Shown here one piece after another: positions 1,061-58,058 of a stretch of DNA of 64,000 bases. The translations under genes were made by a program, and so were the position numbers. Position 1 is the stretch's first letter; the number at the start of each line of letters is the position of its first letter. The notes beneath the pieces are model-generated. The model worked only from the letters and a program-made list of their open reading frames with translations. It ran no database searches and had not been told where the DNA came from. The DNA comes from an uncultured virus (IMG/VR IMGVR_UViG_3300005201_000009) (taxonomy: Duplodnaviria; Heunggongvirae; Uroviricota; Caudoviricetes): IMG/VR virus record IMGVR_UViG_3300005201_000009. The stretch is one strand, 5' to 3'.

Positions 1061-1092
1061 AAGCGCCGCTCCTCCGGGGGCGGCGCTTTTTG
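1061..1092 (+). terminator. Rho-independent terminator
   Basis: AAGCGCCGCTCC-TCCG-GGGGCGGCGCTT followed by a T run. Confidence 0.75.
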
Positions 1093-1216
1093 TGCGTCCG
1101 GCAGGATAAAGACAAATTTTTCCTCTTGGGGCGTTTAACATAGACAAAGGCCGGGAAAACCTTGCTACCGACGGTCTTGAACATGCTGGACGGTGATCGC
1201 CGGCTCCGAATATTAC

Positions 1217-1546
1217 TTACATCGTCTCAATAGTTTCAAATGAAAGCCCGGTTACAGCGCAGATCTTCTCAATAGAGTCGCCCATCTCCTTCATCTTGCG
1301 GGCAATCTCAAGTGCCTTTTCGGATTGGCCCTCTGCCAAGCCCTTGGCACGGGCCTCGTCTTTGAGATCGTCTATCATCTGGTTGTAGTCCATTTCGTAT
1401 TTAATTCGGATCATCCGCTTTATTGCTCTTGCATGATCGCGGCTTATTCCATTCTTTACTGCGCGTTCCGCCCACATAATACCTTCCTCCTTCTGACAGA
1501 GCTGCTTGATCAGCACCGACACTTGTTCCTCATGCCGGTATTTCAT
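1217..1546 (-). pseudogene. C-terminal fragment of an Rpn/PD-(D/E)XK 'transposase_31'-type protein
   Basis: Typical C-terminus 'ARAKGLAEGQSEKALEIARKMKEMGDSIEKICAVTGLSFETI'; the nuclease domain is absent. Confidence 0.65.
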
Positions 1547-1621
1547 ATGTGTCGAAAACCTCCATCTAATTCCTTATCCCACAACGAATTAGCTCATTTT
1601 GGGCTAACGATTTGAGCCAAA

Positions 1622-1670
1622 AGCGGCGCTGGAGTAGGCGTTGGAGAGGGTCCGAATCCCTTAGCCGCTA
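1622..1670 (+). ncRNA. Mini tRNA-like element (acceptor stem plus T-arm, no anticodon arm)
   Basis: AGCGGC...GAGGG-TCCGAAT-CCCTT-A-GCCGCT-A. Confidence 0.35.
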
Positions 1671-1785
1671 GACCCGCGGGAGGTCGCCGTGAAAGGCAAG
1701 AACGTTGAAGGGATGCGCTAAGGGGGGACACAGCGCGGGCGCAAGCGCTCCCCCCTACCCTTTATTTTATTCAAGGAGGAATCAA

Positions 1786-1932
1786 ATGGCAAAATTGACG
1801 GACGCGATTCGTAAGCGTGTGGCGGTGATGGCAGTTAAAGATTTGTTTGAGGTAACGGCGCTTGTGCCTATAGAGCAAGTCTATAAGGTAAGAGCGTTAT
1901 TCGAAAAAAGAAAGGAGGAAACCAATGGCTAA
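1786..1932 (+). CDS. Small phage hypothetical protein
   Basis: AGGAGG RBS; MAKLTDAIRK...; overlaps the next start. Confidence 0.6.
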   Translation: MAKLTDAIRKRVAVMAVKDLFEVTALVPIEQVYKVRALFEKRKEETNG

Positions 1933-2902
1933 AGCAAAAGAAGTAGCGGCATATGAAGTGCCTGCGCTGGTCATTACGCCGGATCAGCCGGTAGAGGTGA
2001 CGGGAAACTACGCCGCAATCGAGAAGACGCTCCAACAGTGGAAATCCAGCGTCTCAAAAATGGATCTCACCGAAGATAATTTAGATCAGGTAACAGCGGT
2101 GAAAAAAGCCGCCGTGGCAGTGAGAAATAATCTTGACCGCGTGGTCGCTGCGACGAAGAAAGCGCTGTTTAACGATCCTAAAGCAATTTTCGAGGCACGC
2201 GTTAAAACGCTGTACAGTCTTGTGGCAGATGTAGAAGGCTCTGCGGACGCGGTTTTAGGCGAGCTGGAAAAGAACCGACTCAAAGAAGTCAACGAGGTTC
2301 TTGATCATTACAAAGCCGAGGCGCAGAAGCAGTACGCGCTTGAGGAATCGTATCTGGCACAGGTCGAGTATCCGAAAGATTTTTACAACAAGACTGTCCC
2401 GAAGGGCTATTCCAGCATGGACAAGTACTGGAAAGAAAGCCTTGACGCACGGTTCAAGGAGCTGAAAAAGGAACAGGACGCGCACGCTGCGGCGGTTCGG
2501 TTGGTTGAGGCATCGTGCGAAGGCGAGAAACGGTTGAATGTTCAGCATTGGGTTGGCCAGCTTAGATATGACGACGTGGCGACTGTCGTTGAAAGCATAA
2601 AGGCTGAAAAAGATCGGCTGCGCCGGCTTGACGAGGAACAAACGACAGCCGGGACAACTTCGACTAGCGAGGTGGTTGAGGCAGAGGTCGTCGATGCAGC
2701 CGAGCACGCGACGGAAGAAACGAGCAAGGTTATTCTCGGCATTCCGGTAACGCTCAATTTCAACACGGACTTCCCCGGCCGCACATCATCAAAAAAACTG
2801 GAGATTATCTATCCATGCGATCTCGGCGACACACTGACCGAGCTGTTTAAGCTGCTCAAGCCTTACGGCATAAAAGTAAAGACTTTGGAGGCGGTATTTT
2901 GA
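1925..2902 (+). CDS. DUF1351-like helical phage recombination-module protein
   Basis: 325-aa coiled-coil pattern 'LTEDNLDQV..KKAAVAVRN..D...KK....P...FE..VK.L'; strong RBS. Confidence 0.55.
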   Translation: MAKAKEVAAYEVPALVITPDQPVEVTGNYAAIEKTLQQWKSSVSKMDLTEDNLDQVTAVKKAAVAVRNNLDRVVAATKKALFNDPKAIFEARVKTLYSLVADVEGSADAVLGELEKNRLKEVNEVLDHYKAEAQKQYALEESYLAQVEYPKDFYNKTVPKGYSSMDKYWKESLDARFKELKKEQDAHAAAVRLVEASCEGEKRLNVQHWVGQLRYDDVATVVESIKAEKDRLRRLDEEQTTAGTTSTSEVVEAEVVDAAEHATEETSKVILGIPVTLNFNTDFPGRTSSKKLEIIYPCDLGDTLTELFKLLKPYGIKVKTLEAVF

Positions 2903-3068
2903 GGTATTACATCATTAAGAGTGGTGAACCGGTGTTTGCGTATGAAGTTTACGTTAACTTTTCAGACACAGATGAAAAGCATCAGGAGCCTGATCGAAAA
3001 CTTGCGGTCTTTGCCAGCCGCGAAGACGCGACGAAGTTCATGCTGATTAAAAACAGGGAGGTGCAAAA

Positions 3069-3407
3069 TTGTTAGTGCTATTAATTTTATCGGCAATCAT
3101 AGGATTGGTTGCGTTCGGTTTTTCAGGTATCGGCGTTCTTGGGATTGCCGTAGGTGCTGTCGTTTTTGTGCTCGGGTTGCCGGGCGCGTTAATCGGTGGG
3201 TTTATTCACGGCGAGGTGTCGTACGCGCAGGACGCTGCCGATTACCGGCAAATATGTGCCGACATAGCGGCGTACGAAAGAGCGGAAGAACATGAGTACG
3301 CCGAGGACTTTCGCAGCGAGCGCCTGACAGACGCGCTCACCGACAGTCCGAGGCAGGTTTATGTCGACAATCGCAAGCAGCAGGTATTTTTGCAAGGGGG
3401 CAAATGA
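3069..3407 (+). CDS. Hypothetical membrane protein
   Basis: Two hydrophobic N-terminal helices; in operon. Confidence 0.6.
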   Translation: MLVLLILSAIIGLVAFGFSGIGVLGIAVGAVVFVLGLPGALIGGFIHGEVSYAQDAADYRQICADIAAYERAEEHEYAEDFRSERLTDALTDSPRQVYVDNRKQQVFLQGGK

Positions 3408-3589
3408 TGGGCATTGAGAAACAAATTACCGAGGTGTATTTCGAGCGCGTGTTCAATCTTGGAAATTACGAAACGTTTCGGCTGGGATTGAAAGCGACCG
3501 TTGGGCCGAAAGATCCGGTGGAAGACACCATAGTGCGTCTCGACGAGCTTACCGTGAAGATGCGCAACCGTAAGGCTGCGGAAAAATAA
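3404..3589 (+). CDS. Small phage hypothetical protein
   Basis: 'RVFNLGNYETFRL' motif common in phage replication modules. Confidence 0.6.
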   Translation: MMGIEKQITEVYFERVFNLGNYETFRLGLKATVGPKDPVEDTIVRLDELTVKMRNRKAAEK

Positions 3590-3605
3590 GTGTAAGGAGA
3601 AACAA

Positions 3606-3881
3606 ATGGAAGAGACATTGAGAGCGAATTTGGGAAAGCTGGCGAAAGATAAAGTAACCGGCTACGAGGGCGTCATTACCGCGTACTGCGTCAGTTTGTA
3701 CGGGTGTAACCAGTACATGTTAACCGCAAAAGTCAGGAAAGAAAACAAACGCGAAGACAGCGGCAACGGCTGGTACGACGAAGGGCGCATTGAAATTGTC
3801 GGGCCGGGTGTGAAACCAAAGAGCGTGCGCGCGGCAAAGCCGGGCGGCGAGAATTTACCCGCGCCGGGAAGCAGGAACTAA
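3606..3881 (+). CDS. Phage hypothetical protein
   Basis: 'LG..AKDKVTGYEGVITA....LYGC......WYDEGR' pattern; RBS. Confidence 0.7.
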   Translation: MEETLRANLGKLAKDKVTGYEGVITAYCVSLYGCNQYMLTAKVRKENKREDSGNGWYDEGRIEIVGPGVKPKSVRAAKPGGENLPAPGSRN

Positions 3882-23233: not shown

Positions 23234-25579
23234 TTATAGCGCGGTTTTTCTCCACATGTAGCATGTAATGTAAGGCGGCATGTTGTTATGTGCTTCCGCC
23301 GACCCTGTCGCGCCATTCGTCGGCCCTCCGGTTTCGCCTGTATTGCCGCCGCCTACCCCGACATAAAGCCCAACCGTGCCACCATACAGCTGGGCGGCGG
23401 CAAACGTCAAACTCCCGTGCGCATGTTTTGGCATCTGCTCCACCGTCAATGTATGCGTCTCACTGCCTCCTGGCGTGTTCACGACAGTAAATGTTCCAGA
23501 GGTATTCATGCCGACGGGAACCCTGCCCTGGCCCCATTCAGTCCATGTTCCCCCACGGAAATTTGTGGGGTTTTCGGAATCGATGGACATATAGATTGTG
23601 CCGACCTTGTCCCGTGCGGCCATGGCAGCCTTTACAAAGGCGGTCGTCGCGATCTGTGTATTATTGGTAGACGTGGCAGCTGTCGGCGCGGTGGGAGTGC
23701 CGGTGAGCGCGGGGCTGGCGAGGGGGGCTTTTTTATTTAACGCATCTTCTACTATGATATTGTTAGCACCAAAATCATTAATATTATGTCTGCTGCTATT
23801 GTCGCTAATATTTGCATATATATTTCCTGCTATATAATTTCTGCTACCTCCCATGAAAATGCCGTAGCTAGCGGCGTTAATACTCCTATTTCGCATAGTA
23901 TTACCTACTATAGTATTATCGCTGCCGTAACAGAATATTCCGCAACCATAGTTGTTGCTGCCGCTATTGCTGTTCAATAATAAATTTCCGATTATTATAT
24001 TATAGTAGCTACTTGAATGTACGCAAATACCACTACTTACGTTAGAACTTGTAGGACTGCACATGTTCGCTAATACATTATGCGTGATAATATTATTATT
24101 ACATCCGTCACCAATTAAAACACCAGGAATATTTTGCCCGTTGCAGATGCACTTACACGTGTTTTCTGATATGACATTATTACTGCTATCTTTAAGCCAA
24201 ATTCCTGCGCATAGAGTGTTATTTGCGTTTGCGCTATTCAATAACTGATTACTGTTTACAGTGCTATTATCGCAATCATGAATATAGATACCCACAAATA
24301 CGTTAACATTGGACGGATTTGATATTGTAAGCCCTTTTATCGTGCAGTGTGTACCTGTACACTCCACAGCACCCTGCGACAGAGTGTTAACTGATACATT
24401 CAATACCGTTGCATTCTTTATACCTTCAAGCGTTACGTTATCTTTATGCACGACAATACGATTACTTAAGTTATACGTTCCTTCCCGTATAACAATTTTT
24501 CCCCCGATTACAGGAAGTGCGGCGATAGCGGCGTTTATCTCCTCACCATCATTAACGCCATCACATAAATAATCGACTTCACCTTGTGTATGCCCCGCAG
24601 CGGACGTGCCGATTACCAATGTGACAGGTTTTACTCCGCTGCCACCAAGATTCTGCGCGTTTACCCCGCTATCCAACAGATTACCCTGAGAGTCAAGTGC
24701 GGCGAAGTTGCCATTGACTGCCCCCGGTACTTTGTCGGCTTTGGCGGTAATAGCGGTCCTTATTGTCGGATGCGCGATAATACTGCTGTCATGATTATCA
24801 ATGCTGTCCGCCAGCTCTGTTTCGTTAACATAATCATTATTATCGTTGTATATTGACCACGCAGGCTGTCCTGCGATGCGTTGGAAATCTGCCTGTTCTT
24901 CTCTTACGCGACATAAACATGTCTTTAGCAGATCTGTTGTTGCATACAATTCATTCAGCTCATTAAAGGTATCAACCGCAGGCAGCCATTTTTGTGATGC
25001 GGCCACAGTACTGACAATCTGTGTATCGGTATAATCTTTTGCATCTCTAAGCGCTTGGACAGCGGTACTTTCCGGTACCAGTTCCCATTCTGTCTGCCCA
25101 GGTGCTGCAGGTGAAATGTTGACTATTTTAACAGGGTTATTACCTACTCGTCTAAAGACTGTCTTTACACGCACCTCTTCCGCGTCGAGGTGCAATATGT
25201 AGCACCAATCTCCCTGTCGATATTCTGCGGTAGGATAATATTCAAAGCAGTTGTGTGCAAAAGAAGCGGCAAGGTACCCTATAAGTTTATGTACAATTTG
25301 TACCAGCTTATTAAGATTATACGAGGATCGGCCAATAAAATGATTCCACGCCCTGCGAGATATTGACGCGCCTTGAGTTAAAACACCTCTCTGCAGCACA
25401 GTGTTATTATAATCTGTACACGTTTCTTTAGGGATATTATTATCAGCATCTACATTAAAAACCTCTACACCGTTGGCATCGTCGTTGTTAAAAGCATCAT
25501 CTGTGTACGCAAAGCGCGCAAGCGGATTGTCTATCAAGCCGGTCACGGTATCCTTTAGATTCTTTAAGTAACTCTGCAT
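23234..25579 (-). CDS. Tail fibre/spike with right-handed beta-helix domain
   Basis: Asn-rich parallel beta-helix repeats; 'LASPALTGTPTAPT...TQIATTAFV'; C-terminal collar-like 'VGTIYMS...GRVPVG...HNNMPPY'. Confidence 0.85.
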   Translation of the reverse strand: MQSYLKNLKDTVTGLIDNPLARFAYTDDAFNNDDANGVEVFNVDADNNIPKETCTDYNNTVLQRGVLTQGASISRRAWNHFIGRSSYNLNKLVQIVHKLIGYLAASFAHNCFEYYPTAEYRQGDWCYILHLDAEEVRVKTVFRRVGNNPVKIVNISPAAPGQTEWELVPESTAVQALRDAKDYTDTQIVSTVAASQKWLPAVDTFNELNELYATTDLLKTCLCRVREEQADFQRIAGQPAWSIYNDNNDYVNETELADSIDNHDSSIIAHPTIRTAITAKADKVPGAVNGNFAALDSQGNLLDSGVNAQNLGGSGVKPVTLVIGTSAAGHTQGEVDYLCDGVNDGEEINAAIAALPVIGGKIVIREGTYNLSNRIVVHKDNVTLEGIKNATVLNVSVNTLSQGAVECTGTHCTIKGLTISNPSNVNVFVGIYIHDCDNSTVNSNQLLNSANANNTLCAGIWLKDSSNNVISENTCKCICNGQNIPGVLIGDGCNNNIITHNVLANMCSPTSSNVSSGICVHSSSYYNIIIGNLLLNSNSGSNNYGCGIFCYGSDNTIVGNTMRNRSINAASYGIFMGGSRNYIAGNIYANISDNSSRHNINDFGANNIIVEDALNKKAPLASPALTGTPTAPTAATSTNNTQIATTAFVKAAMAARDKVGTIYMSIDSENPTNFRGGTWTEWGQGRVPVGMNTSGTFTVVNTPGGSETHTLTVEQMPKHAHGSLTFAAAQLYGGTVGLYVGVGGGNTGETGGPTNGATGSAEAHNNMPPYITCYMWRKTAL

Positions 25580-25593
25580 AAATATAATACCTC

Positions 25594-26454
25594 CTAGTCT
25601 CCATACTCTATTGGAACGAATAATTTAAACTGCTGTGCGCATATATAAAACCACATGTTAAGACGACTAATGGCGTTTGAAATATTGATGTTATTATTGG
25701 TACGGTAGTAGACAAAGTAAAATCTTCCCTGCGGAACGATGTTTATGTCGTGTATATATCCTGCGCCCAAGCTACGCGTTATGTCCATAAAATTGGCAGC
25801 TGTCGGACCGTTATACCTAACACGTTGAATACATTCAAAAAGCGATTTAAATAGTTCGGCAGGAAGAAAAATATCGCCAAAGAACGTCTCTTCAAACGTT
25901 AAAAACCTTTTACCGTAGTATGTGGTATACGGTGTCCCGTCGGTAGGTGGATTGTCTAGTAAATTTTCATTAATGACATCACCGTCTTGTGTAAACAACT
26001 CTGTCCCGTAAGGCAGGTAGCCTACCGGCTCAGTATCTTTAGGCACAAGGCTCATGCGCCGTTCTTCTGAAGCGTCGTTGACAATGTCGTCTGGATAGTC
26101 GTCGTATTCTTCACGCACAAATCGAATATTCTCATTATACATATCTAACAGTCCGCGCTCACTGCGTTCTTCACCATTGACAACATGACTATGCGTAAAC
26201 AATATTGAACCGAGGGTTTTATATCCATAAGATAGCGGCCAAAACAAACCAGCTATTTTAGCGATGCTTATAAGGTCTTTTTCCCGAATCGGCATCTCTT
26301 TTGCATTTACTTCGTCGTCAGACTTCCACTGTGCTAATGTCTGATACACTAGCTCATCAAGAATGCCTTGTACCGCATGATTCGGGCATGTGACCAGGTT
26401 GTATAAATATTTGCCGTTGAACTCTGCTCGAAAATAACGAAAAGGCTGTTTCAT
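25594..26454 (-). CDS. Putative baseplate protein
   Basis: Between the baseplate-J-like gene and the tail fibre. Confidence 0.5.
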   Translation of the reverse strand: MKQPFRYFRAEFNGKYLYNLVTCPNHAVQGILDELVYQTLAQWKSDDEVNAKEMPIREKDLISIAKIAGLFWPLSYGYKTLGSILFTHSHVVNGEERSERGLLDMYNENIRFVREEYDDYPDDIVNDASEERRMSLVPKDTEPVGYLPYGTELFTQDGDVINENLLDNPPTDGTPYTTYYGKRFLTFEETFFGDIFLPAELFKSLFECIQRVRYNGPTAANFMDITRSLGAGYIHDINIVPQGRFYFVYYRTNNNINISNAISRLNMWFYICAQQFKLFVPIEYGD

Positions 26455-27647
26455 ACCACACCGCCTATGTCTGTTGAGCTAAATGTGATGTTGGTTAAAC
26501 GCGGCAATCGTGTCTTAGGGATACGCACATACGATACTTCACTATCACTGCTGTCAAGAATGTCTATATTAAGAATACTAACGTCCGGTAAATTTAACTT
26601 TTCAATGACTTTATACGCCTCTTTTTCGCCAAATATGTCTAAACGTGTAACCACATTTCTGTACGGTCTAAACAGCTCTTCAATACTATTTTCTATCTGT
26701 GCCGGTTTCAATTTGCCGGAGTTGTATTGATAATCTATTGTAAGTGAGAAATCGACATAGTCGTGGAATCGATAGTATACCGGACGACGCCCGTTTATGT
26801 ATAGGTCATTGTGGTACCAGACTACACAATCCGGCGTAACCTGATGCGTGTCATATATAACGCTTTCGCAAACAACTTTGGCCATCTCGTCTGTTGGAAT
26901 ACCGGTAATGGTTATCAATAGTTCTTTTGGAGCGAGTGCTATACCATCGTATGTTTGTGACACAGTATCCTCATTAAAAATTAAATCGCATTCAAAAATA
27001 TTTGGCAGGTTACGTATTTTTAATTCTAACCCTTTAACATGGTCTTGACGTGTAACATCATTTAATATGCGAGATCTGAAATCAGTTGCAGATTCATCGT
27101 CATAGCCAAGCTGTTTTAAATTATCTTCACATGAAAACTCGAATGCTTCATCAATAGGCGCTTTATCAGAACGAAAAAGTTCTATTTTCCTGTGGCCACT
27201 TACCGGAAAAGCACCTTTTACCTGAGAGACAGCATTAATAATACCCGACTCGCCTGAAGCAAACTCACGACCACATATCATTTCAAAAGAAAAAATTATA
27301 CCACTTGCGGATTGGTAGTTATATGTACCAGCGAGAAGTGTCCTCGCCTCAGTGCTTTTATTAAGAATATTTATGCTTAGCATGCTGCCAGTACCTTTTT
27401 TAAATTCGGTTCCTACAAGTTTTGCTACTGAATAAAGATCAAGGTCGTCACAAAGCAATGGATCAAATCGATTCCGTAACGCAAGGGCAGTATCGGTAAG
27501 TCCAACCATCCCTGCAGCAAAAGAACGAAGCACAAGGTATATTTTATTATTGTGGTTACGCCAGATTTTTTGTGGAGCTATAAGGCTATCGTATGTGTCC
27601 GCCAATTCAGATGTTACTTCATCAACACTCTTACTTTCTAACGCCAT
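26451..27647 (-). CDS. Baseplate J-like protein
   Basis: 'LG.DDESATDFRSRI' motif; size and position. Confidence 0.7.
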   Translation of the reverse strand: MALESKSVDEVTSELADTYDSLIAPQKIWRNHNNKIYLVLRSFAAGMVGLTDTALALRNRFDPLLCDDLDLYSVAKLVGTEFKKGTGSMLSINILNKSTEARTLLAGTYNYQSASGIIFSFEMICGREFASGESGIINAVSQVKGAFPVSGHRKIELFRSDKAPIDEAFEFSCEDNLKQLGYDDESATDFRSRILNDVTRQDHVKGLELKIRNLPNIFECDLIFNEDTVSQTYDGIALAPKELLITITGIPTDEMAKVVCESVIYDTHQVTPDCVVWYHNDLYINGRRPVYYRFHDYVDFSLTIDYQYNSGKLKPAQIENSIEELFRPYRNVVTRLDIFGEKEAYKVIEKLNLPDVSILNIDILDSSDSEVSYVRIPKTRLPRLTNITFSSTDIGGVV

Positions 27648-27672
27648 TCCAGCACTCCTACAAACAATGTCC

Positions 27673-27708
27673 CACCGTACCACGAAATTTCAAAAAGTCA
27701 AGGGTTTT
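27673..27708 (-). promoter_or_regulatory. Conserved late-module promoter, copy 1 of 5
   Basis: AAAACCCTTGACTTTTTGAAATTTCGTGGTACGGTG. Confidence 0.7.
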
Positions 27709-27734
27709 AAACACGATTTTTTACTTTTACCCGG

Positions 27735-28337
27735 TCATGCCCACACCCCAGCTCCTACCGAACCGGATAGTGCCGCCTCCCCCTGCGTCGTCGCGGCACC
27801 CACTCTTAAGTAAGCATCGACGGCTGTCGCCATTTGGGCAGCCATGTATTCATCACCACCTTCAGTCATAGTGACCATAGCCTGAAAAGCAGAAAAAAAA
27901 GCGGTCTGCAGTGGGAGAGAGACACAGGTTAGGGCCCCCGTCGCTGTGCCGGAGAGCGGTGATGGGACGCCTATGGGGCTTGTTACGGTACCGGACACGT
28001 CGCAAACTACCTCCCCTGTCGACACCATGCTGTGGATAGCCGCAGCGAGTTCCGCTGCAAGGTAGGCATCTCCACCAGCTGTCATGGCATTCATAGCGGT
28101 GCAGGCTTCCACAATGTCTCGGGTGCACGGCTCGTCATCACAAGGTATACTACCGGTACCCGCCCCGGTGAAAGCACCCGCAGGCACCGTCCCTACATCT
28201 GTTGTTGTTATGACACCGCTTTCCGCATAGGCTTTACACGCTGCTACGACCATATCTGCAAAAACCTGATTATCACCGTCGGCCATGGCCTGAAACGCCG
28301 CAAGAAGATCTCCCTGCAAAGTTGAAACCGCTGCCAT
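27735..28337 (-). CDS. Hypothetical virion protein with three internal helical repeats
   Basis: Repeated 'AFQAM..GGD.Y.A...A.A...Y'. Confidence 0.6.
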   Translation of the reverse strand: MAAVSTLQGDLLAAFQAMADGDNQVFADMVVAACKAYAESGVITTTDVGTVPAGAFTGAGTGSIPCDDEPCTRDIVEACTAMNAMTAGGDAYLAAELAAAIHSMVSTGEVVCDVSGTVTSPIGVPSPLSGTATGALTCVSLPLQTAFFSAFQAMVTMTEGGDEYMAAQMATAVDAYLRVGAATTQGEAALSGSVGAGVWA

Positions 28338-42845: not shown

Positions 42846-43510
42846 TACTTCTTCTCTTTAGGATCCTTTTTCTTTCCGGGATCCTCCTCGGACAGCTTCG
42901 CATACTCCGCATCAAGCGCGTCGCTAAGCGCCTTAACGCCGGCAGCGTCCACTTTTTCATCTGCGGCAAGCGTTTTCAGCTTCGCCAGAGCATCTTCGAC
43001 AAACAGAGTAAGCACCTCATTCGCGTCGGTCAGTTTGGCAATCTGATTCTTCAGATTTTGAAGCGCCTCAGCGTCTGTCGACGCCGATTCCAGCTTACGG
43101 TACTTCTCCTGTGCGTCAAGCAGATCTGCCTTATACTTGGTAATCTCCGCTTTCAGTGCCTTGATTTCCTCGCCGGCCTTGCGGCTTTCCTTGCGTGCCT
43201 CAGCAAGCGCCTCGTGCGGCGTTCTGGCCTCCGGCGGCAAATCCTCATGCAGAATAAGCAACGGCCCAGCCATCGTCTTCTTCGGGTTGTCTTTGTAGTG
43301 CACAAACGTCCTGCTGCGCTCGCAGAGAAGTTTGTACTCCTCCTGAGTCAGCCGCTCGAAACCGGTGGTGATCTGCCGCCCCGACCACTTGTCAGTTGTG
43401 GCGTTGTTGAATTTCTTCTCCAACACCACCCTGCCGGCTTCGTCCTTGGCGGTACACGTTATCGGAGCGTTATGTACGTTCTCGACATAGACATACTTTT
43501 TATCAGCCAT
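42845..43510 (-). CDS. Hypothetical coiled-coil protein following the capsid gene
   Basis: GGAGG RBS; long coiled coil. Confidence 0.6.
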   Translation of the reverse strand: MADKKYVYVENVHNAPITCTAKDEAGRVVLEKKFNNATTDKWSGRQITTGFERLTQEEYKLLCERSRTFVHYKDNPKKTMAGPLLILHEDLPPEARTPHEALAEARKESRKAGEEIKALKAEITKYKADLLDAQEKYRKLESASTDAEALQNLKNQIAKLTDANEVLTLFVEDALAKLKTLAADEKVDAAGVKALSDALDAEYAKLSEEDPGKKKDPKEKK

Positions 43511-45146
43511 TGCCGCCACCTCCGTTTCCATCGTTGCTGCCACCGCCGTTACCACCGTTTCCATCGTTGCTGCCACCGCCCGATCCAACTGTCGTTGTGC
43601 TCGCCGGAGCGTACCGGCTGTTTCTTCCCATGCCGGTCACAACATGCACGGTCTTCCTGATCGGGCAGAGCAGGCTTCCAATCCTCGAAAGAGCCGTCCG
43701 CACAATGCCGTCCCGGTAGCCGGGAGCGGAAGGCAGGATCATGTTCTTAATGGGAACAGGGGCCATAACCAGATCAGAAAGCACGTTGTTTACTTCGAAC
43801 GCCGATTGCAGCGAGGGGAACGTCATAAACATGATGTCCTCGTCGGTCGCGTTGAACGGTGTGTTGGCGTTAAGCATAACGTCCGGGCAAATCTCAAAGG
43901 TCTTCTGCAAGCCTTCCGCAGACTGCGTCGCCAGCGTGCCGACGATTTTATTACCGGCTTCAAACGCCGTGCCGATAATCGACAGCGGGTTGTTCTGGTT
44001 GTACTGCTTGGACAGCATGCTGAACTTGAGCGCCTTGAACAGGTCAGTGCCGCAGTTAATCTTGACCGAAGTCGGCAGGAAATGGAGCTCTTCCATTTTG
44101 TCCGCGATCATGTGGTTAAGCATGAGCAGCAAATCCGCGCCGACGGTATCGTTTGCCGGAGTGCCCGGACCCGCGCCGTCATGTTCCCACAGATATTGCG
44201 CTGTGGGACGGTCGTCGGGGTACTGCGTATAACAGTCGTCACGAATGGCGATCTGCTGCAAGCCGTCAAACCCGGACTCTTCGTGGCCGAAGTAAATCAG
44301 GGTGTTTTTCAGGATTTTCAGCATCAGGTCCGCAAATACGTCCTGATCGCCCAATGTCGTGCCGACCAACCACGCGCCCTGTCCCTGAATCATCTGCTCG
44401 TTCGGCCCTTGGGTCTCGTAATCGACAACCAGATTGATGACTTCGGAGAGCATGGTTCCGACTTTCCGCTTCCCGGCGATCGAGGTGTTAAACTCAAGCC
44501 CGGCGTGCGCGACGTTGGAAACCCGCGCGGCCCCTTCATAAGAAGCGGTGAAAATCTGGATAATGTCGGCCCACATGTTGGGCACGCCCATCTCGGACAC
44601 CAAGCGGTCCGCGTAGCCGGTCAAATACGGCTGCTTGAACACCTTGGGTATCATGCTGATGTTCCAGTACGGCGTCGCCATACCGGACAGCATCGAGTCG
44701 CTGACGCCTTTTACAACCGCTTCCACGATGAACTTCGATTCCTTCGAATCAAAGTACGCAATCTTGGAAATGCTGTCACGCACGGCGGCCTGCGCTTCTT
44801 CAAGGCCCTTGCCCTGCTCGACGAGCTGCGCGACCTTGTTGTTGGCGTACGCCATCACACTGTCGGCGGCGCGGGTGGCCATCGACTGCCGTTTCAGCGT
44901 AGGATCGGCGAGTATTTTGTCCAGAAGCATTCTCTCGGGAACGTCCAGAAAGATCGCGCCGGCCTGCTGGTTGGCCCGTACTTTAAAACCACCGGTCGTG
45001 CCGACTGCGGCGTCTTCATTGCGTCCAATGTGAATAGCGCCGATGCGCCCTTCCTCGAAGTGCTGGGGGAACTGGTTGTATAGCAACTGCTCCCATTTCG
45101 GCTTGAGGGACTCTAAACTTTTCGCAACATTTAATGTCGTACCCAT
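43503..45146 (-). CDS. Major capsid protein (DUF2184-like), Gly-rich C-terminal tail
   Basis: After protease and decoration genes; 'N.LIYFG....GFDGL', 'IGSLLCP...V....GM'. Confidence 0.75.
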   Translation of the reverse strand: MGTTLNVAKSLESLKPKWEQLLYNQFPQHFEEGRIGAIHIGRNEDAAVGTTGGFKVRANQQAGAIFLDVPERMLLDKILADPTLKRQSMATRAADSVMAYANNKVAQLVEQGKGLEEAQAAVRDSISKIAYFDSKESKFIVEAVVKGVSDSMLSGMATPYWNISMIPKVFKQPYLTGYADRLVSEMGVPNMWADIIQIFTASYEGAARVSNVAHAGLEFNTSIAGKRKVGTMLSEVINLVVDYETQGPNEQMIQGQGAWLVGTTLGDQDVFADLMLKILKNTLIYFGHEESGFDGLQQIAIRDDCYTQYPDDRPTAQYLWEHDGAGPGTPANDTVGADLLLMLNHMIADKMEELHFLPTSVKINCGTDLFKALKFSMLSKQYNQNNPLSIIGTAFEAGNKIVGTLATQSAEGLQKTFEICPDVMLNANTPFNATDEDIMFMTFPSLQSAFEVNNVLSDLVMAPVPIKNMILPSAPGYRDGIVRTALSRIGSLLCPIRKTVHVVTGMGRNSRYAPASTTTVGSGGGSNDGNGGNGGGSNDGNGGGGNG

Positions 45147-49971: not shown

Positions 49972-50007
49972 CACCGTACCACGGATTTTCAGAATGTCAA
50001 GTGTTTT
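49972..50007 (-). promoter_or_regulatory. Conserved late-module promoter, copy 4
   Basis: AAAACACTTGACATTCTGAAAATCCGTGGTACGGTG. Confidence 0.7.
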
Positions 50008-50040
50008 GGGAACGAATTATTTATTTTTAGACAGAAGAAG

Positions 50041-52635
50041 TCAGGGTGCCCTCTTAATGAAGGCGCCGGGGTCGATTTCAACATAGCCGCCGTCAAGGCG
50101 TTTAACCGATGGCGTTTTAGCCGCGTCGTCACGCAAAGACGCCCTTTTATCCGCGATGAGCTTACGTATATCGGCAAAGTCGGGGTGCGTGGCCACAATA
50201 TGTACTGCGGCGTAGCGCGCACCGTCCAAGGTGTGAATAGGACTGCTTTTACCTACTCCTTTTGGGATTTTGTTGTCCTTGTCCCGCATAGCAAGATTAA
50301 GTGCCTCGGCAACGTCTTTGGCAATTTTACAAACTATGAACCGACTCAGATAGCATAACTTGCTGACCAAGAAACACGAATCCTCTACCAGCGGGCTTTT
50401 TTTCTTGTAAATAATCTTAATATTGTACCGACGCAACTCTTGCGCCATAGACGGGAATGTGTCCTTTATAGTCACATCCGGCAGCCATTTGATTTCCTGC
50501 TCGGGAAAGTCGTGCCGCACAACACTCGCCGCGTCGTCGAGACTGGGGAAGTCATAGTGTTTTATGCAGTATATCACACCGCCGCGCACGACGTACGCAG
50601 AGCCGCGATTATAGCCGGTATTCACATCCTGCGCCCAATAAACTACCTCATCAGGCCTTAATTTAATATCCAAATCATAACCGACGTAATTGCGCGCCCA
50701 ATCAAACCCCGGGATAACCCGCCCCTTGGCAATCGATAGAAACTCGCCGTGCATGAACACCTCGCGCTCCTCGGGGGTGTACATTTTGTACATGTCTTCG
50801 ATGAGACTTTTTGGTAAAAACGGGTTGTGCTCAGTCCACCCTCTAATAAGAACGAACGCGATACCCGTCTTCTTAAAATGACAGTATACCGCGTATAGCC
50901 CCTTCTGGCCTTGTGATGTGCTCGCAAAACAATTATGGACTAGAAACTTGTTTGTAAAAAACTCGTGCTCGTCTTCAACAGTTATATCATACACGGACTC
51001 TAATTTTCGCAGCGCGTGTAGGGGAACAAGTTTTTGCATGCCTTCTTTTACGTGTCCTAAAAGCTTTTCCACAAATGATGCACGCTCTATCCTCAAAAAA
51101 CTTTCTTCCAAACCCAGGTTTATCAATTGTTCTAATCTTATCACGGCATCTCTGAGAGCAGAAGTGAGACGGCAATTTTGATATATATTTTGTTTTACAA
51201 ACAAAGCACTCACATTCGTAGTGTCCCGCACCTCTTTCTCTGCTTTTTTCACGAGCGGCTTCTTTAGCCTGCCTGTTCCTACGAAGCCTTCTACAAGTTT
51301 CACACCTAACACGCTGCTCCGCGCCTGTCGTAAAAACAGCCCTACAATCGACACAAACCTTCCTAATCGAGACTTTGTTCCAAACACCTGTATAGGTTCC
51401 TTGACTTCGCTTTTTGTCGCGTTCTTTACACTGGTTTTTACGTCTGACTGTCTGGCATCTATCACACCTAATCTTGTTTTTTCCGTCTGTGATAACCATT
51501 TCTCCACAATCAACACAAGGTCTATAGTAAAAGCTCTGTTTATTTCCTCCGTGATATACGTTGTGTTGGTGCTCTGTAACGCAGTCCAAGTTTTCAATAG
51601 TGTTATTAGCTGTGTTAAAATCTTTATGGTGTATAACCATTCCTGCTGAAACCGCCCCGTGAACGCTTTCCCATACAGCCACATGCAGTGCCTTAGATCT
51701 TTCACCCTTAGACGCAATAGACCTGTAATATCCTTGAGGCTTTTTAGGGTTGTGTTGCCAATAGTATCTAACCCCATTAAAAGCAACAGAGCTTCGTTTG
51801 TCTTTTTCAAACAATTTTGTATCTTTTGCCACTGCTTTACTCTCCGTAATGAAATTGATAATAAATGCTCATTGTTCTTTATCGTTCCAACTTCTTGCCA
51901 ATCTTTTATGCTCTCATTCCACACTGTGTGATCTGGTGTTAAGGGAACGCCGTGAACACGAACTATCTCTCGATACCCTGTGTTGTACTTACCGATAATC
52001 CTTCGCCATCCGCGTCGAGTAAGCACAAAATCCCCAACACTAATGTCTACTATGCGGCATAAAAAAGGATCGGTCAACCCGTATATACGTTTTACATCTA
52101 CTTTTCTACATATAATCTTTGCATTCCCTCCCAGGCAAGTGCACGGCCCCCGCTCACCAGGTATCACCTGCCGGCAGCGCTCGTTTAGCGCTTTGGTCGC
52201 TTCCAGCATTTTATCCGTCGTAAGCTCGTCCGCTTCCTCGACGTAAATCTTATGCACATCCAGCCCGAATATCTCGCCGGGGTTCTCCAACGGCTGCAAC
52301 AGCACCGTCACCGTGCCGATAGTGAAGTAGTTGAATTTCTTATTCTCGATATACGGAGTCTTGCTGTCGTCCAAATACTGCCGGAAATATATTAAAAACG
52401 TCTTTTCCAAGTGGCTGAGCGTGATGCCGCAAACCATGAGACGCACGTAGTCACCGGCACGGTCTTTCTTTCCTTGAAGCCTTTTTACATCGTACAGCAC
52501 ATGTAAGACGTTGGCGCGCGTTTTACCTGCCCCATAACCGCAACAAAGGAAGAACCACTTTACTTTATGAAATAAAGACGGCGCTTGCATATAATAACTT
52601 TGGTGTGGTAAAACGATCGCTCTTTTCACGATCAA
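50041..52635 (-). CDS. terL: Terminase large subunit containing an intein
   Basis: 'LPHQ', Walker A 'GYGAGKT', Walker B 'IYVEEADE', 'NPFLP', nuclease 'QDVN...HTLDGARY'. Confidence 0.92.
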   Translation of the reverse strand: MIVKRAIVLPHQSYYMQAPSLFHKVKWFFLCCGYGAGKTRANVLHVLYDVKRLQGKKDRAGDYVRLMVCGITLSHLEKTFLIYFRQYLDDSKTPYIENKKFNYFTIGTVTVLLQPLENPGEIFGLDVHKIYVEEADELTTDKMLEATKALNERCRQVIPGERGPCTCLGGNAKIICRKVDVKRIYGLTDPFLCRIVDISVGDFVLTRRGWRRIIGKYNTGYREIVRVHGVPLTPDHTVWNESIKDWQEVGTIKNNEHLLSISLRRVKQWQKIQNCLKKTNEALLLLMGLDTIGNTTLKSLKDITGLLRLRVKDLRHCMWLYGKAFTGRFQQEWLYTIKILTQLITLLKTWTALQSTNTTYITEEINRAFTIDLVLIVEKWLSQTEKTRLGVIDARQSDVKTSVKNATKSEVKEPIQVFGTKSRLGRFVSIVGLFLRQARSSVLGVKLVEGFVGTGRLKKPLVKKAEKEVRDTTNVSALFVKQNIYQNCRLTSALRDAVIRLEQLINLGLEESFLRIERASFVEKLLGHVKEGMQKLVPLHALRKLESVYDITVEDEHEFFTNKFLVHNCFASTSQGQKGLYAVYCHFKKTGIAFVLIRGWTEHNPFLPKSLIEDMYKMYTPEEREVFMHGEFLSIAKGRVIPGFDWARNYVGYDLDIKLRPDEVVYWAQDVNTGYNRGSAYVVRGGVIYCIKHYDFPSLDDAASVVRHDFPEQEIKWLPDVTIKDTFPSMAQELRRYNIKIIYKKKSPLVEDSCFLVSKLCYLSRFIVCKIAKDVAEALNLAMRDKDNKIPKGVGKSSPIHTLDGARYAAVHIVATHPDFADIRKLIADKRASLRDDAAKTPSVKRLDGGYVEIDPGAFIKRAP
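50932..52137 (-). mobile_element. Intein (402 aa) in TerL
   Basis: Block A C-LGGNAKI, block B 'LTPDH', block F 'VYDITVEDEHEFF', block G 'LVHN/C'. Confidence 0.9.
50987..51832 (-). CDS. HNH homing endonuclease with multiple CxxC Zn fingers, out of frame inside the intein
   Basis: 'LHVAVWESVHG...IHHKDFNTANNTIENL...H...H'; GGAG RBS before GTG. Confidence 0.85.
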   Translation of the reverse strand: MAKDTKLFEKDKRSSVAFNGVRYYWQHNPKKPQGYYRSIASKGERSKALHVAVWESVHGAVSAGMVIHHKDFNTANNTIENLDCVTEHQHNVYHGGNKQSFYYRPCVDCGEMVITDGKNKIRCDRCQTVRRKNQCKERDKKRSQGTYTGVWNKVSIRKVCVDCRAVFTTGAEQRVRCETCRRLRRNRQAKEAAREKSRERGAGHYECECFVCKTKYISKLPSHFCSQRCRDKIRTIDKPGFGRKFFEDRACIICGKAFRTRKRRHAKTCSPTRAAKIRVRV

Positions 52636-52660
52636 CCTCCTTTGCGCTTAGGCACTGGAA

Positions 52661-53350
52661 TCACCTCTCCACTATCTCGCCATTCTCAAGCACGTCAAAA
52701 GCCGGCTCATCGTCATTGTCTCTATCGCGGCCCTTAGTGCGCAACTTCCCGCTCAAACCTTCCGGCAAGTCTTCTTTAGTCCCGATAAGAGCGTCGAAAC
52801 CCTCGTCGCTCGTGTCGCCACCGCTTATCTCTATCAAAGGCAATTTCTCAAACTCCTCCCGCGTCACCGGCACAAACGTCAAGTACACAGAGTCCTTCTC
52901 GACATCCCCTACCACCTCAGCCATTTCCTTGCGCAAATCGCGCCGCGCCTGTGCAGCCTTGAAGCGCATGGTGAGCATGTCTTTATCAATCGGACTTTTG
53001 CCATCGCGCTCGCTGGGGTGTCTGTAATCGCTGCCTGAGATGCCTTTGCCTGCCGCAATGCCTGCCAGAGTCTCCAACTCTTCCATCTCCGCAAGGCATT
53101 GCTCGGCATAAATGCTTTTCGTCTCTCTCTGGTACTCATCGTCAGCAAGCACCATAGCGCGCAAGCGCTTATCCGCTACTTTGTTGTAGTCGAGCGCAAG
53201 AGAGTCGTTATTTATTTTGCGGTAGGATTCGATGCAGCGGCGCACCAATGCCCGGAACGGATCGTCAGGCTCTTCCGGCGGGGCAGAAAAATCGACAAAT
53301 TCTTCTTCGGGGGGCTTTAGTATCTCGAGTTTCTTTTCTCTCCTTGCCAC
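52661..53350 (-). CDS. Putative terminase small subunit
   Basis: Immediately upstream of terL; helical, acidic tail. Confidence 0.5.
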   Translation of the reverse strand: MARREKKLEILKPPEEEFVDFSAPPEEPDDPFRALVRRCIESYRKINNDSLALDYNKVADKRLRAMVLADDEYQRETKSIYAEQCLAEMEELETLAGIAAGKGISGSDYRHPSERDGKSPIDKDMLTMRFKAAQARRDLRKEMAEVVGDVEKDSVYLTFVPVTREEFEKLPLIEISGGDTSDEGFDALIGTKEDLPEGLSGKLRTKGRDRDNDDEPAFDVLENGEIVER

Positions 53351-53358
53351 AGTGCGGA

Positions 53359-53394
53359 CACCGTAGCACGGATTTTCAAAAAGTCAAGAGTTTT
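53359..53394 (-). promoter_or_regulatory. Conserved late-module promoter, copy 5
   Basis: AAAACTCTTGACTTTTTGAAAATCCGTGCTACGGTG. Confidence 0.7.
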
Positions 53395-53472
53395 GAGATC
53401 AAATTATTATTCCGCACAACACGCGCTATTTAGCACAGAATGTTAACAACGCGCCGCAAAAAATACACAAAA

Positions 53473-53539
53473 GGCCGCCGGAACTCCGCAGATACTACCA
53501 AGAACAGAGGCTGCCATAAAGGCAGCTTTTCCGGCGGCC
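53473..53539 (-). ncRNA. Structured three-way-junction RNA 2 (C4/CI-like candidate; also terminator-like)
   Basis: 11-bp outer stem GGCCGCCGGAA/TTCCGGCGGCC, two inner hairpins, TTTTGT tail. Confidence 0.5.
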
Positions 53540-55463: not shown

Positions 55464-56255
55464 CTAGCCTACATACTCCCTCAACAACTCTACAAACTCC
55501 TTACAAGTCAACGATTCGGCATGGGGGAATTCGCGGAATAGGTTAGCCGCGAACCATGCGATTTTCTTTGTCGCCGGGTCTTCACGCCCGGCGCGGCTGG
55601 TTATGTAACCCACCGATACATTGGCGGCGCATAGTTCTTTGATCCTCCTTTGTACCGTGGGGGATAACCGCGCGGTATAATCCGCGAAAAACAAGCGCAA
55701 GTTTTGCCTTACCTGGTCGCGGGCGTTCTGTAGCTCTTTATCCATCATCAACTGCGCCGGGTCTTCTTCTGTCTCCCGTGACTCCCATGCTGTATACAAT
55801 GTCCCTAGCACCTTCCCCATTGACCGTGTCGATCGGGTTGCCTTGTCTACCATTTGCGGATAGTGCAGCGTCAACATATCATTGTTGACATTGCCGATCA
55901 TATAATCCGGCGTTGATTCATTGCCTGCGTTGATCCGGTTGATCCGCGCTACCTCACGCGCTGTATTATCCGCGCTTATCGATCGGGTGATGCGACAACC
56001 GCGATCGCCCACTTGCTCAGCCTCTAGCGCGTCCAGTGCCTGGGCGTAACTGTAGGCCGTGCCCCTGCGCTTTGCGGCCTTGAGCGCGCCGATAGTATAC
56101 ATAATTGCGGCGTCCTGGGGATCGATACCCCTTGATTCCGCGATCGCCTCAATCTTCCCCCGCCGGGAAGAATCCAAAAACAACAATGCACACGCTGTCA
56201 CACGTGCCATGATCCGGGGCGGCAATTGCCGCATTTGGTTGGTACTGCTACTCAT
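55464..56255 (-). CDS. Hypothetical regulator, possibly a divergent sigma-factor-like protein
   Basis: GGAGG RBS; 'DPQDAA' and 'EDPAQLMMDKEL...RLSP..QRRI' resemble sigma region 2 and region 3/4 boundaries. Confidence 0.4.
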   Translation of the reverse strand: MSSSTNQMRQLPPRIMARVTACALLFLDSSRRGKIEAIAESRGIDPQDAAIMYTIGALKAAKRRGTAYSYAQALDALEAEQVGDRGCRITRSISADNTAREVARINRINAGNESTPDYMIGNVNNDMLTLHYPQMVDKATRSTRSMGKVLGTLYTAWESRETEEDPAQLMMDKELQNARDQVRQNLRLFFADYTARLSPTVQRRIKELCAANVSVGYITSRAGREDPATKKIAWFAANLFREFPHAESLTCKEFVELLREYVG

Positions 56256-56472
56256 AATAGTAACCTCCGATTTAGAATTCGATAAACTGCTAGGCTTATC
56301 TATCTATCATTATTGCAAATTTTTAATTATTTGTCAAGCGCAAAAACACAAAAAAGTGAAAATTTTTAAATTATTTTTAAATGGGTAAATTGGAGAAATT
56401 GGGGGCCGCCGGGGACATGGGCCGCCTATGTCTCTTGTGTTACAAACTCTATCATAAACAGCCTTGAGCCTA

Positions 56473-56570
56473 GGGGGTTTCGGTTTTTTCCCGAAACCCC
56501 CCTCATTCTGCCAAACCCTACCGGGGGTTTCGGTTTTTTTCCCGAAACCCCCCTCATTCTGCCAAACCCT
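56473..56570. repeat. Tandem duplication (period 50 bp), each unit a hairpin
   Basis: GGGGGTTTCGG-T6/7-C-CCGAAACCCCC-CTCATTCTGCCAAACCCT, two copies. Confidence 0.85.
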
Positions 56571-56633
56571 GCTACACCTTAAATAATTTCGTCTTTTTTT
56601 TTTCCCGTAATTACCCATTTTCATCAAACCCTG

Positions 56634-56774
56634 TTACCCCTTGAATCCGTTGATCACACCGTGCTTTTTAACGTATTCAACCCTCCGTAAATAGGCCGCC
56701 GCTATCTTTGGGTTACGGGCTTTGTGGCTTTTATGGAGCCATAAATACTTGAAAATCACTTGATCCGCGCTCAT
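56634..56774 (-). CDS. Small basic hypothetical protein
   Basis: AGGAGG RBS; preceded by a minus-strand copy of the 31-bp motif. Confidence 0.5.
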   Translation of the reverse strand: MSADQVIFKYLWLHKSHKARNPKIAAAYLRRVEYVKKHGVINGFKG

Positions 56775-56912
56775 TTTGTACCTCCTATGCTTAATACGCG
56801 CCGAAACAGCGCGGTGTGTAAAAATAATTGCAAAAAAAGACCGTGGCAAAAAAAGCGCGGAATCCGGCAAAAAAACAAAAAAGATGCGGTTTTTCGGGGT
56901 TTTTGAGTTGAT

Positions 56913-57495
56913 TTTAACTCTATTAAATTATGTTATGGGTAACAATCACGATTATGCTTTTTTTAAATAACTAGTTTTTCATTTTTTGGGTGTGGTGGGT
57001 GACTTTTCCACAAGTTTTTAAAAATTTCTGTAAATTTCCCTCCGTGCTACACACTACACTATAGATACTACTACTACACACTACACTATAGATACTACTA
57101 CTACACACTGCTACTACGGAAATAAAGCCAATATTTTGTTATGCGACACGCACAAAAAAATAGTTAATTTTGGTAGCTTGTATAGTATTCCTGACATTTT
57201 GTTAAGTAGTTTTTTGTCAAGAAAATGATAATCTTTAAAAACGGTGACTTTTCCACAAGTTTTTATATTTTTAGGTGATTTTACACACCTTGAGTATTTT
57301 ACGCGTAAAGGGTGTGACAATAAAAAATAAAATATTTTCGCTAAAGGGGTTGACACAATAAAATATTTATGATACCATAATAGCGGAAAGTTACATTTTC
57401 CAGTTTTTGAACCCCCAAAATAGAGCAAAAAAAGAGACATTTTTAAAAAAACATAACCGTGATTGTTACCCATAACATAATTTAATAGAGTTAAA
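56913..57495. repeat. ~55-bp inverted repeats (56913-56967 / 57441-57495) flanking an AT-rich segment
   Basis: TTTAACTCTATTAAATTATGTTATGGGTAACAATCACG (38 bp exact) plus a 17-bp extension with 3 mismatches. Confidence 0.85.
57047..57109 (+). repeat. 27-bp tandem repeat, 2.3 copies
   Basis: CTACACACTACACTATAGATACTACTA. Confidence 0.85.
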
Positions 57496-57643
57496 TTATG
57501 TCACGAATATATAAAACCAATGATAATTTTTACACACGGCGCGTATTTAAAGCGTTAAAGGCATAAGCAACAAAAACAGTAATAATTTTTTACACACCGC
57601 GCTATTTTGGCGCGTTAGGTATATCAAGATTAAGGAGTAGATT

Positions 57644-57883
57644 ATGGCAAAAGAAACAAAAAAAGGCGGCTTTAGGGATAATAAAGCCCCTACCAGCTTA
57701 TCGGTTATTATCACCGATAGTAACGGCAATGAATGGGGTCGGCTTTATGCGTCGCCTAAAGACTTCTCTACCGGGTCGGTAGGGTTTTATGCGACGGGCA
57801 AGGCGGTCAATCCGGCCAATCCTGAGGCGAAATATCAGGCGGGGCTTACGTTTACCTTGTGTGGTAGCAAGCCGGCGGCGTAG
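57644..57883 (+). CDS. Small basic hypothetical protein (first early gene)
   Basis: AAGGAG RBS; 'PKDFSTGSVGFYATGK...YQ.GL..TL.GSK'. Confidence 0.7.
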   Translation: MAKETKKGGFRDNKAPTSLSVIITDSNGNEWGRLYASPKDFSTGSVGFYATGKAVNPANPEAKYQAGLTFTLCGSKPAA

Positions 57884-58058
57884 CAGTATAGGGGCGCGTC
57901 TATGCGTGACAGTGTAGCGACGTGATTGTGTAGCGGCGTAATAGGTTAAGTAACGAAAAATCAAGGCAGAATAACTACTCAACGATTTTACATGGCAGGG
58001 GTCGGACTCTGCGCTGCCTATGCCGGAGGGGAAACACGGTTTTAATGCCTTCCCCCAG

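Follow-up and report, generated by a model that had tools for sequence, protein, structure and literature searches.

A terminase intein with an HNH endonuclease gene nested out of frame in an uncultured caudovirus

Inteins that harbour an endonuclease gene in a reading frame other than their own have been described in phages and in cyanobacteria, and the element analysed here is a real dual-coded intein of this already published kind. It interrupts terL, the gene for the large terminase subunit (TerL), in an uncultured virus of the Caudoviricetes (IMG/VR record IMGVR_UViG_3300005201_000009); the whole stretch of 64,000 nucleotides that was analysed is referred to as the window. In the brucellaphages Tb and Pr (Perisivirus), an out-of-frame HNH gene within the terL intein was noted in 2015 (PMC4422536), and the GenBank record NC_019446 lists gp07 with the remark 'intein present' and, nested inside it, gp08 as a 'putative HNH endonuclease'. 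Gosselin, Arsenault and Gogarten describe 'non-canonical' actinophage inteins with an endonuclease VII-like gene (IPR004211; PDB 1E7D) in reading frame 3; the large terminase subunit is one of the four host protein types, the host of the out-of-frame class being unstated in the available text, and the authors propose that the intein was invaded by a free-standing nuclease gene and predict that such elements are under-annotated (10.1101/2025.01.02.630785). Phillips, DeSimone and Gogarten report a cyanobacterial dnaX intein with a LAGLIDADG endonuclease in a +2 open reading frame (ORF) and credit Gorbalenya 1998 for the idea (10.64898/2026.09.14.751524). Finally, the ShiLan domain of Arsenault, Gosselin and Gogarten (Genes 2025) is an HNH concealed in another frame of actinophage DNA methylase genes (PMC11855218). 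An earlier interpretation of the window made from its letters alone, the sequence-only reading, had implied that the arrangement was novel; this was overstated, because out-of-frame endonucleases in inteins, including those of terL, are already in the literature (PMC4422536; 10.1101/2025.01.02.630785; 10.64898/2026.09.14.751524).

Each of these systems shares much with the window element and differs from it in a specific way. Like the window, brucellaphage Tb has a same-strand HNH gene with zinc ribbons that occupies the middle of a terL intein in another frame, with the terL frame left open. However, the Tb nuclease belongs to Pfam HNH (PF01844), begins with the ribbons, ends with the HNH and is offset by +1, whereas that of the window belongs to HNH_3 (PF13392), begins with the HNH, ends with the ribbons and is offset by +2; a BLASTP comparison of the two gives E 0.03, which is too weak to call them homologous. 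The actinophage inteins have the same architecture, the same relative frame and an in-frame middle that is likewise predicted to be unstructured; it is the family assignment, as far as it is described in that preprint, that sets them apart, their nuclease being endonuclease VII-like whereas the window ORF and three relatives (from Tetrasphaera phage TJE1, Clostridium phage phiCDHM19 and the locus L006) are HNH_3 only. Pfam does not place the window ORF in the endonuclease VII family, and a tblastn search with the TJE1 nuclease returned no actinophage besides TJE1 among the matches listed (60 rows; 455 records). The dnaX intein resembles ours in its +2 ORF between the splicing domains, its disordered in-frame region and the Shine-Dalgarno sequence ahead of the ORF, and its ratio of nonsynonymous to synonymous substitution rates (dN/dS, or omega) takes low values for the endonuclease reading and high values for the host reading, the same pattern as in the relatives of the window element; it differs in that the endonuclease is of the LAGLIDADG family and the host gene is cellular rather than a phage terL. 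The ShiLan domain has a third-frame HNH with zinc fingers, a GTG start, a stop-free host frame and a sporadic distribution, as seen here, but no detectable intein splicing domains, and its in-frame peptide is thought to be retained, unspliced, as a loop of the methylase. A literature search, which is not a proof of absence, found no paper that treats terL inteins with an HNH_3/zinc-ribbon nuclease as a class of their own.

The explanation that we favour, with a probability of about 85%, is that the window contains a selfish insert with two overlapping genes, a spliced terL intein and an out-of-frame HNH homing nuclease. The anatomy of the element, its intact motifs, the avoidance of stop codons, its precise absence from relatives and its foreign base composition are observed directly, as are frame-specific selection and recent transfer in related elements, and the steps that would connect these observations are as follows. 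The terL gene would be translated straight through the class-1 intein of 402 residues, and the two splicing halves would then fold together and excise the insert, including a meaningless shadow peptide of about 280 residues, to give a terminase of 462 residues. The second product, an I-HmuI-like HNH_3 nuclease of 281 residues with four zinc-ribbon DNA-binding modules, is most likely started internally at GGAGAG/GTG. During co-infection, this nuclease would most likely nick or cleave terL alleles without the intein at ...GERxPC[LI]/CF[AG]STSQG (the slash marks the insertion point), and repair of the cut allele would copy the intein and the nuclease into it, i.e. the element would home. Under this explanation, the HNH frame should be subject to selection on its amino acids and the terL frame to stop avoidance only, because the shadow peptide would be spliced out and the HNH is encoded beneath it.

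The terL precursor gene (50041..52635; minus strand, as are all parts of the gene and of the insert given below) is a single ORF of 864 aa with zero internal stops, predicted to give a TerL of 462 aa once spliced. Its two ends match PHROG phrog_2 'terminase large subunit' (E 4.2e-16), the match in the C-extein covering residues 597-817. Alignment with intein-less alleles delimits an N-extein of 166 aa (52138..52635) and a C-extein that begins with CFASTSQGQKG (50041..50931), the latter also recognized by the phrog_2 match. The intein between them comprises TerL residues 167-568 (50932..52137) and has the landmarks of class 1: C1, T67xxH70 (TPDH), H401-N402 (LVHN), and then Cys+1. An alignment of 22 related inteins shows no variation at C1, T67, H70 or N402, and canonical C...[HS]N/[CS] termini are found in all 20 related inteins whose ends could be placed. 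Two parts of the intein look like splicing machinery. The N-terminal splicing domain (intein residues ~1-101; 51835..52137) is defined by beta-strands in the AlphaFold2 model and by a conserved GD.VLTR.G motif, and the C-terminal splicing region (residues ~379-402, VYDITVEDEHEFFTNKFLVHN; 50932..51003) by predicted strands at 379-401 and a conserved VY.L.VE..HE[FY]FANG.LVHN block. The AlphaFold2 model of the in-frame intein, for which an alignment of 21 related inteins was used, shows residues 1-90 as a block with a predicted local distance difference test score (pLDDT) of 74-95, and the C-terminal strands at 379-401 have a pLDDT of 91-97 (residues 381-402). All 161 intein residues with a pLDDT <50 fall between 117 and 376, where only isolated long helices are predicted, and the in-frame middle has no Pfam match at E<=0.1. 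Among the related host frames, 27 of 33 give Hint-type matches at E<=1e-3. The intact catalytic residues and the essentiality of terL suggest that the window intein is a spliced class-1 intein. Apart from this, a 12-residue insertion follows block A (CRKVDVKRIYGL; window 52075-52110, intein residues ~10-21) that is unseen in 21 of 21 aligned related inteins, and the AlphaFold2 confidence drops there, to a pLDDT of 74 for residues 11-20.

The nested ORF (50987..51832) encodes 281 aa from a GTG start, 2 nt out of the terL frame, and covers intein residues 102-384. A Shine-Dalgarno-like GGAGAG (51840..51845) precedes the GTG by 7 nt. In the HNH frame, which has stops just upstream at terL offsets 719 and 764, only 12 codons are open ahead of this start; the ORF ends with a stop that overlaps intein residues ~383-384, which is 18 codons before the intein end and in the initial beta-strand of the C-terminal splicing region. 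The ORF product is assigned to HNH_3 (E 1.2e-12; 47.6 bits, cut-off 24.8), with a weak zf-LYAR match as the only other Pfam hit at E<=0.1, and matches the PHROG 'HNH endonuclease' phrog_15471 (E 3.6e-20); its homologues at E<=1e-3 comprise 2628 cluster representatives. The catalytic motif (ORF residues 68-94, HHKDFNTANNTIENL...H..H; 51551..51631) was delimited by the conservation among 56 homologues and is the sole such motif in the window: H68, H69, D71, N76, N77, N81, L82, H90 and H94, each invariant or at least 90% conserved in these homologues, are all present. The motif is followed by four zinc-ribbon modules of the CxxC...CxxC type (ORF residues ~106-272; 51017..51517), identified in alignments. 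AlphaFold2 predicts an elongated, multi-domain protein with a mean pLDDT of 76, 84-98 in the HNH core and 94-97 in the last zinc-ribbon module. The best solved relative, by profile as well as by Foldseek, is I-HmuI, a group I intron-encoded HNH homing endonuclease that binds DNA with helical modules. The profile match to it (PDB 1u3e) has an E of 1.2e-5; the window protein differs from I-HmuI in its repeated zinc ribbons and its location in an intein. With these data each structural point of the sequence-only reading is borne out: its coordinates and details for the intein (402 aa, with C1, TPDH and VHN/C) and for the HNH ORF (50987-51832, with GTG and Shine-Dalgarno sequence, a CxxC string and a stop in the C-terminal splicing region) proved correct, and the scans of both frames with hidden Markov models that it had proposed place HNH_3 in the ORF frame and no family in the in-frame middle. 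Its description of this middle as devoid of an endonuclease motif and yet free of stops likewise agrees with the missing Pfam match, the low pLDDT and an openness that the shuffles described next seldom reproduce.

In the terL frame, the 281 codons of the overlap contain 0 stops; in the third frame, the same stretch contains 40. We compared this with 20,000 shuffles each of two types. Synonymous-codon shuffles, which retain the HNH protein and its codon set, contained a mean of 4.0 terL-frame stops, and 0.2% of them were stop-free; for codon-order shuffles the mean was 6.1 and the stop-free share 0.005%. These shuffles are conservative because they keep the HNH ORF's own codon set. The relatives could be treated in the same way. 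A tblastn search of isolate phages with the HNH ORF had matches inside terL of TJE1 and phiCDHM19; both phages have, within an intein whose host frame is open, an HNH_3/zinc-ribbon ORF displaced by 2 nt from that frame. L006 is a fourth element of the same layout, and in all three relatives HNH_3 is the sole nuclease family at E<=0.01. The phiCDHM19 shadow frame is stop-free in 0.015% (synonymous) and 0.005% (codon-order) of the shuffles, and that of TJE1 in 10% and 0.8%, respectively. When the four elements are compared with each other, all six pairs of HNH-frame proteins show significant similarity (E 8e-13 to 6e-33), whereas five of the six pairs of shadow peptides do not (E 0.16-80); the sixth shadow pair has a 28-aa match (E 1.8e-6), which corresponds to the conserved HNH motif read in the shadow frame.

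The arrangement is widespread. We scanned IMG/VR with a 5-sequence alignment, and all family counts refer to the best 80 loci. The HNH is nested in a longer open frame on the same strand in 64 of them, at offset +2 in 55 and at offset +1 in 9; when the remaining 16 were rechecked by match coordinates, 10 more turned out to be nested, by the looser criterion that the other frame need only cover the match, and 6 were free-standing, which brings the nested total to 74/80. Clustering of the first 64 at 60% HNH identity gives 31 clusters, 29 of which share the offset of the window. The nine loci with a nested HNH_3 at offset +1 (L057, L059, L061, L064, L065, L072-L074 and L043) fall into two clusters, and these elements must be much more heavily recoded, because that relative frame has 40 stops in the window. 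Fifteen of the 33 host frames that were scanned have terminase-domain matches (Terminase_3, Terminase_6N/6C, GpA_ATPase, T7 type). Two loci are worth describing on their own. L014:2-3844 has a host frame of 1281 aa with two inteins, one containing an in-frame LAGLIDADG_3 and the other an out-of-frame HNH. L075:1782-3612 has a free-standing HNH gene (2989-3612, 207 aa; 63% identity and E 2e-99 to the nested HNH of the phiCDHM19 type) directly downstream of a related intein-less terL (...KHDDS/ADALTG...), and may represent a link between the free-standing and the nested form.

The openness of the terL frame and the recurrence of the layout also bear on two ways in which the out-of-frame position could be explained away. 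An ordinary in-frame HNH intein could have been shifted by two compensating indels in the course of sequencing or assembly. We consider this next to impossible: two indels would have filled the terL frame with stops, and none is found in 281 codons; moreover, the HNH frame has stops just before its own start and ends ahead of the intein end, and the same layout recurs in isolate genomes (TJE1, phiCDHM19 and Brucella phage Tb) as well as in the nested IMG/VR loci. The other possibility is that the HNH is not made as a free protein at all, and that programmed -1 ribosomal frameshifting from the terL/intein frame yields a fusion of N-extein, N-terminal intein part and HNH. In favour of this, the HNH ORF is read in the -1 frame relative to terL, the offset that nearly all related clusters share. 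The short distance over which the HNH frame is open ahead of a start with a good Shine-Dalgarno sequence, the AAAGGAG found likewise 8 nt ahead of the HNH GTG in phiCDHM19, and the other offset used by two clusters and by Brucella phage Tb argue against such a fusion, and it is in our view very improbable.

If the HNH protein is the product that counts, selection should be visible in its frame. Omega was calculated for the overlap in both frames by the Nei-Gojobori method (NG86) in six groups of relatives with close, non-identical members. Eighteen unique pairs had 10 or more differences; common ancestry links the pairs within a group, and the values for the two frames depend on each other. 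Omega in these pairs was 0.06-0.40 in the HNH frame vs 0.18-1.84 in the host frame, and it was lower in the HNH frame in 17 of them with a tie in the remaining one; the upstream host sequence gave 0.03-0.38. In these relatives the HNH frame, and not the host frame, is under purifying selection, and the frame-specific pattern anticipated by the sequence-only reading is hence seen in them. The window element itself is a singleton. No relative closer than ~31-44% HNH identity was found in viral, metagenome and genome contigs, in 5.8 billion protein clusters and in 1.84 billion representatives, and dN/dS is therefore not obtainable for this copy. Single-protein scans with the HNH ORF gave 2 distant loci in viral contigs, 3 distant loci in metagenome contigs and zero loci in genome contigs; a word-indexed protein search had one match, of 31% identity, and the same type of search with the TerL intein region returned the window's own protein and one match of 39% identity over 11% of the query. 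The HNH protein of the window is itself not in the collection of 5.8 billion protein clusters, and the window TerL protein is recorded from one contig of 68,382 bp.

Several of these findings weigh against our explanation. The window element stands alone, and selection on the HNH frame was measured in relatives only, in pairs and frames that are not independent of each other. The Pfam Intein_splicing match is weak (E 3.4e-6, 27.4 bits, under the 35.8 cut-off), as is the Foldseek match of the whole HNH model to the Protein Data Bank (PDB), in which I-HmuI ranks first with a probability of 0.87 and E 0.03 and no hit reaches <=1e-3. Finally, the last zinc knuckle lacks its fourth Cys, which is kept in 4 of 4 aligned relatives, and this could signal early decay. 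In the window (50990-51010) this knuckle reads TCSPTRAAK, and all four relatives have the second Cys there (e.g. TCSPSCARK). This stretch overlaps the start of the C-terminal splicing region, and the missing Cys could reflect a cost of dual coding or early decay. Both the singleton status and the incomplete knuckle would suit a scenario in which the HNH ORF is a relic that is decaying or not expressed; what survives would be a mini-intein with a long linker, and the open HNH frame would be inherited rather than maintained. On the other side stand the 281 intact codons compared with the 40 stops of the third frame, the presence of every residue that is invariant or at least 90% conserved in the 56 homologues, the intact start and Shine-Dalgarno sequence, and the purifying selection on the HNH frame of related elements, and we regard the scenario of a relic as quite improbable.

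A functional homing nuclease, as proposed in the favoured explanation, implies mobility of the element. In the three nearest TerL homologues (the IMG/VR loci L003, L004 and L005, with 78, 64 and 67% identity) the 402 residues are precisely absent, 3/3, and the junction reads ...GERxPC[LI]/CF[AG]STSQGQKG. The N-extein contains GYGAGKT and IYVEEADE, which we take, as in other TerL ATPases, to be Walker A-like and Walker B-like motifs. The insertion point is ~30 residues past IYVEEADE and immediately before the tripeptide AST, which by its pattern is presumably the putative ATPase coupling motif, with the nuclease domain to follow. A PDB sequence search with the intein-less L003 TerL found no terminase structure. 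The whole intein, splicing parts and HNH ORF alike, has a GC content of 41.3%, compared with 49-50% for the exteins and 50.2% for the window; the uniformly low value fits acquisition of the insert as one unit. A sporadic distribution and a foreign base composition are hence both observed for the window element. For the relatives, a comparison of the nested region with its surroundings is possible: L039 and L040 are distinguished by a single nucleotide of the HNH region, with an upstream host synonymous divergence (dS) of 0.47, L055 and L063 by 6 nt with an upstream dS of 0.52, and for L013 and L069 the HNH-frame dS is 0.25 vs 1.01 upstream. The nested region is much younger than the host gene, the signature of recent horizontal movement in these relatives. 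Along the same lines, five terL loci of the phiCDHM19 type (L039, L040, L042, L089 and L037) have a near-identical intein/HNH region and an upstream dS of 0.26-0.55.

It might be argued that the nested HNH is not a mobility protein and helps in DNA packaging, as do HNH proteins beside the terminase genes of cos phages, and that it is merely stored in the intein. HNH genes often adjoin terminase genes, the idea was raised for the nested HNH of the brucellaphages (PMC4422536), and the free-standing HNH gene of L075 next to an intein-less terL would agree with it. The intein-less loci L003-L005 tell otherwise, as no HNH-like motif is present in their ~4.4 kb. HNH proteins with a role in packaging, for instance HK97 gp74, are members of PF01844, whereas the window domain is HNH_3, nearest to the homing enzyme I-HmuI. 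Together with the youth of the element relative to its host gene in relatives, which points to mobility, this makes a packaging role unlikely, and homing remains our explanation for the nested nuclease. As a separate observation, Salmonella phage Shemara (MN070121.2, ~1064-2354) and its relatives have an HNH homologue (1890-2354, minus strand) that adjoins a terL match (1064-1774, plus strand).

It is tempting to extend these ideas to the whole family. Across 22 elements, the identity of the splicing domains correlates with that of the HNH (Spearman 0.38, a value reached by 1/2000 permutations), a modest correlation that is compatible with co-inheritance of the two and does not prove it. The terL insertion site of the window is unseen among 21 relatives, most of which have the element at the C-terminal nuclease motif HDDx/CDA. 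A wider picture, which we offer tentatively and which, taken as a whole, is possible rather than probable, would regard the HNH_3/zinc-ribbon clade as an essentially intein-resident lineage of overprinted endonucleases that moves with the intein as a unit and repeatedly changes its target. The clade would then occupy at least four terL sites in several TerL families, namely the C-terminal nuclease Asp motif, the DFG nuclease motif, a site before Walker B and, in the window only, the site before the CFASTSQG coupling motif; the window singleton would represent a recent jump to a new site, and L075 a transition between the free-standing and the nested state.

The window as a whole is a phage genome fragment. 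Its replication and DNA-modifying genes comprise those for a primase, helicases, a family-A DNA polymerase and a DNA methylase, and its structural genes include a portal, a head protease and a baseplate Gp10-like protein. Around the element (50000-53500), promoter-like sites (5 vs a shuffle mean of 4.0) and terminator-like sites (3 vs 3.3) occur at chance level, and we propose no internal promoter. Elsewhere in the window, low-GC stretches (0.41-0.43 vs ~0.51) are found at 24001-28000, across tail or baseplate genes (Gp10_C, beta-helix), and at 56001-58000, where there is no ORF >=150 aa and no tRNA. A 479-aa antisense ORF (43644-45083, plus strand), almost coextensive with a gene of 547 aa that has no assigned function (43503-45146, minus strand), is probably a compositional artefact.

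In principle, the window element adds little to what is known of dual-coded inteins; it is a clean case outside the actinophages and brucellaphages. The features that set it apart are modest: a nuclease family unlike that of the published cases, a terL site not seen among the relatives compared, and membership of a clade that is overwhelmingly nested in inteins. The family survey supports the suspicion voiced in the 2025 preprint that annotation greatly understates how common such elements are (10.1101/2025.01.02.630785). The nested ORF is passed over by gene callers, and a phage intein with a long 'linker' is worth reading in all frames before it is called decayed. Such nested pairs are natural test beds for the evolution of overlapping genes and for new site-specific nickases.

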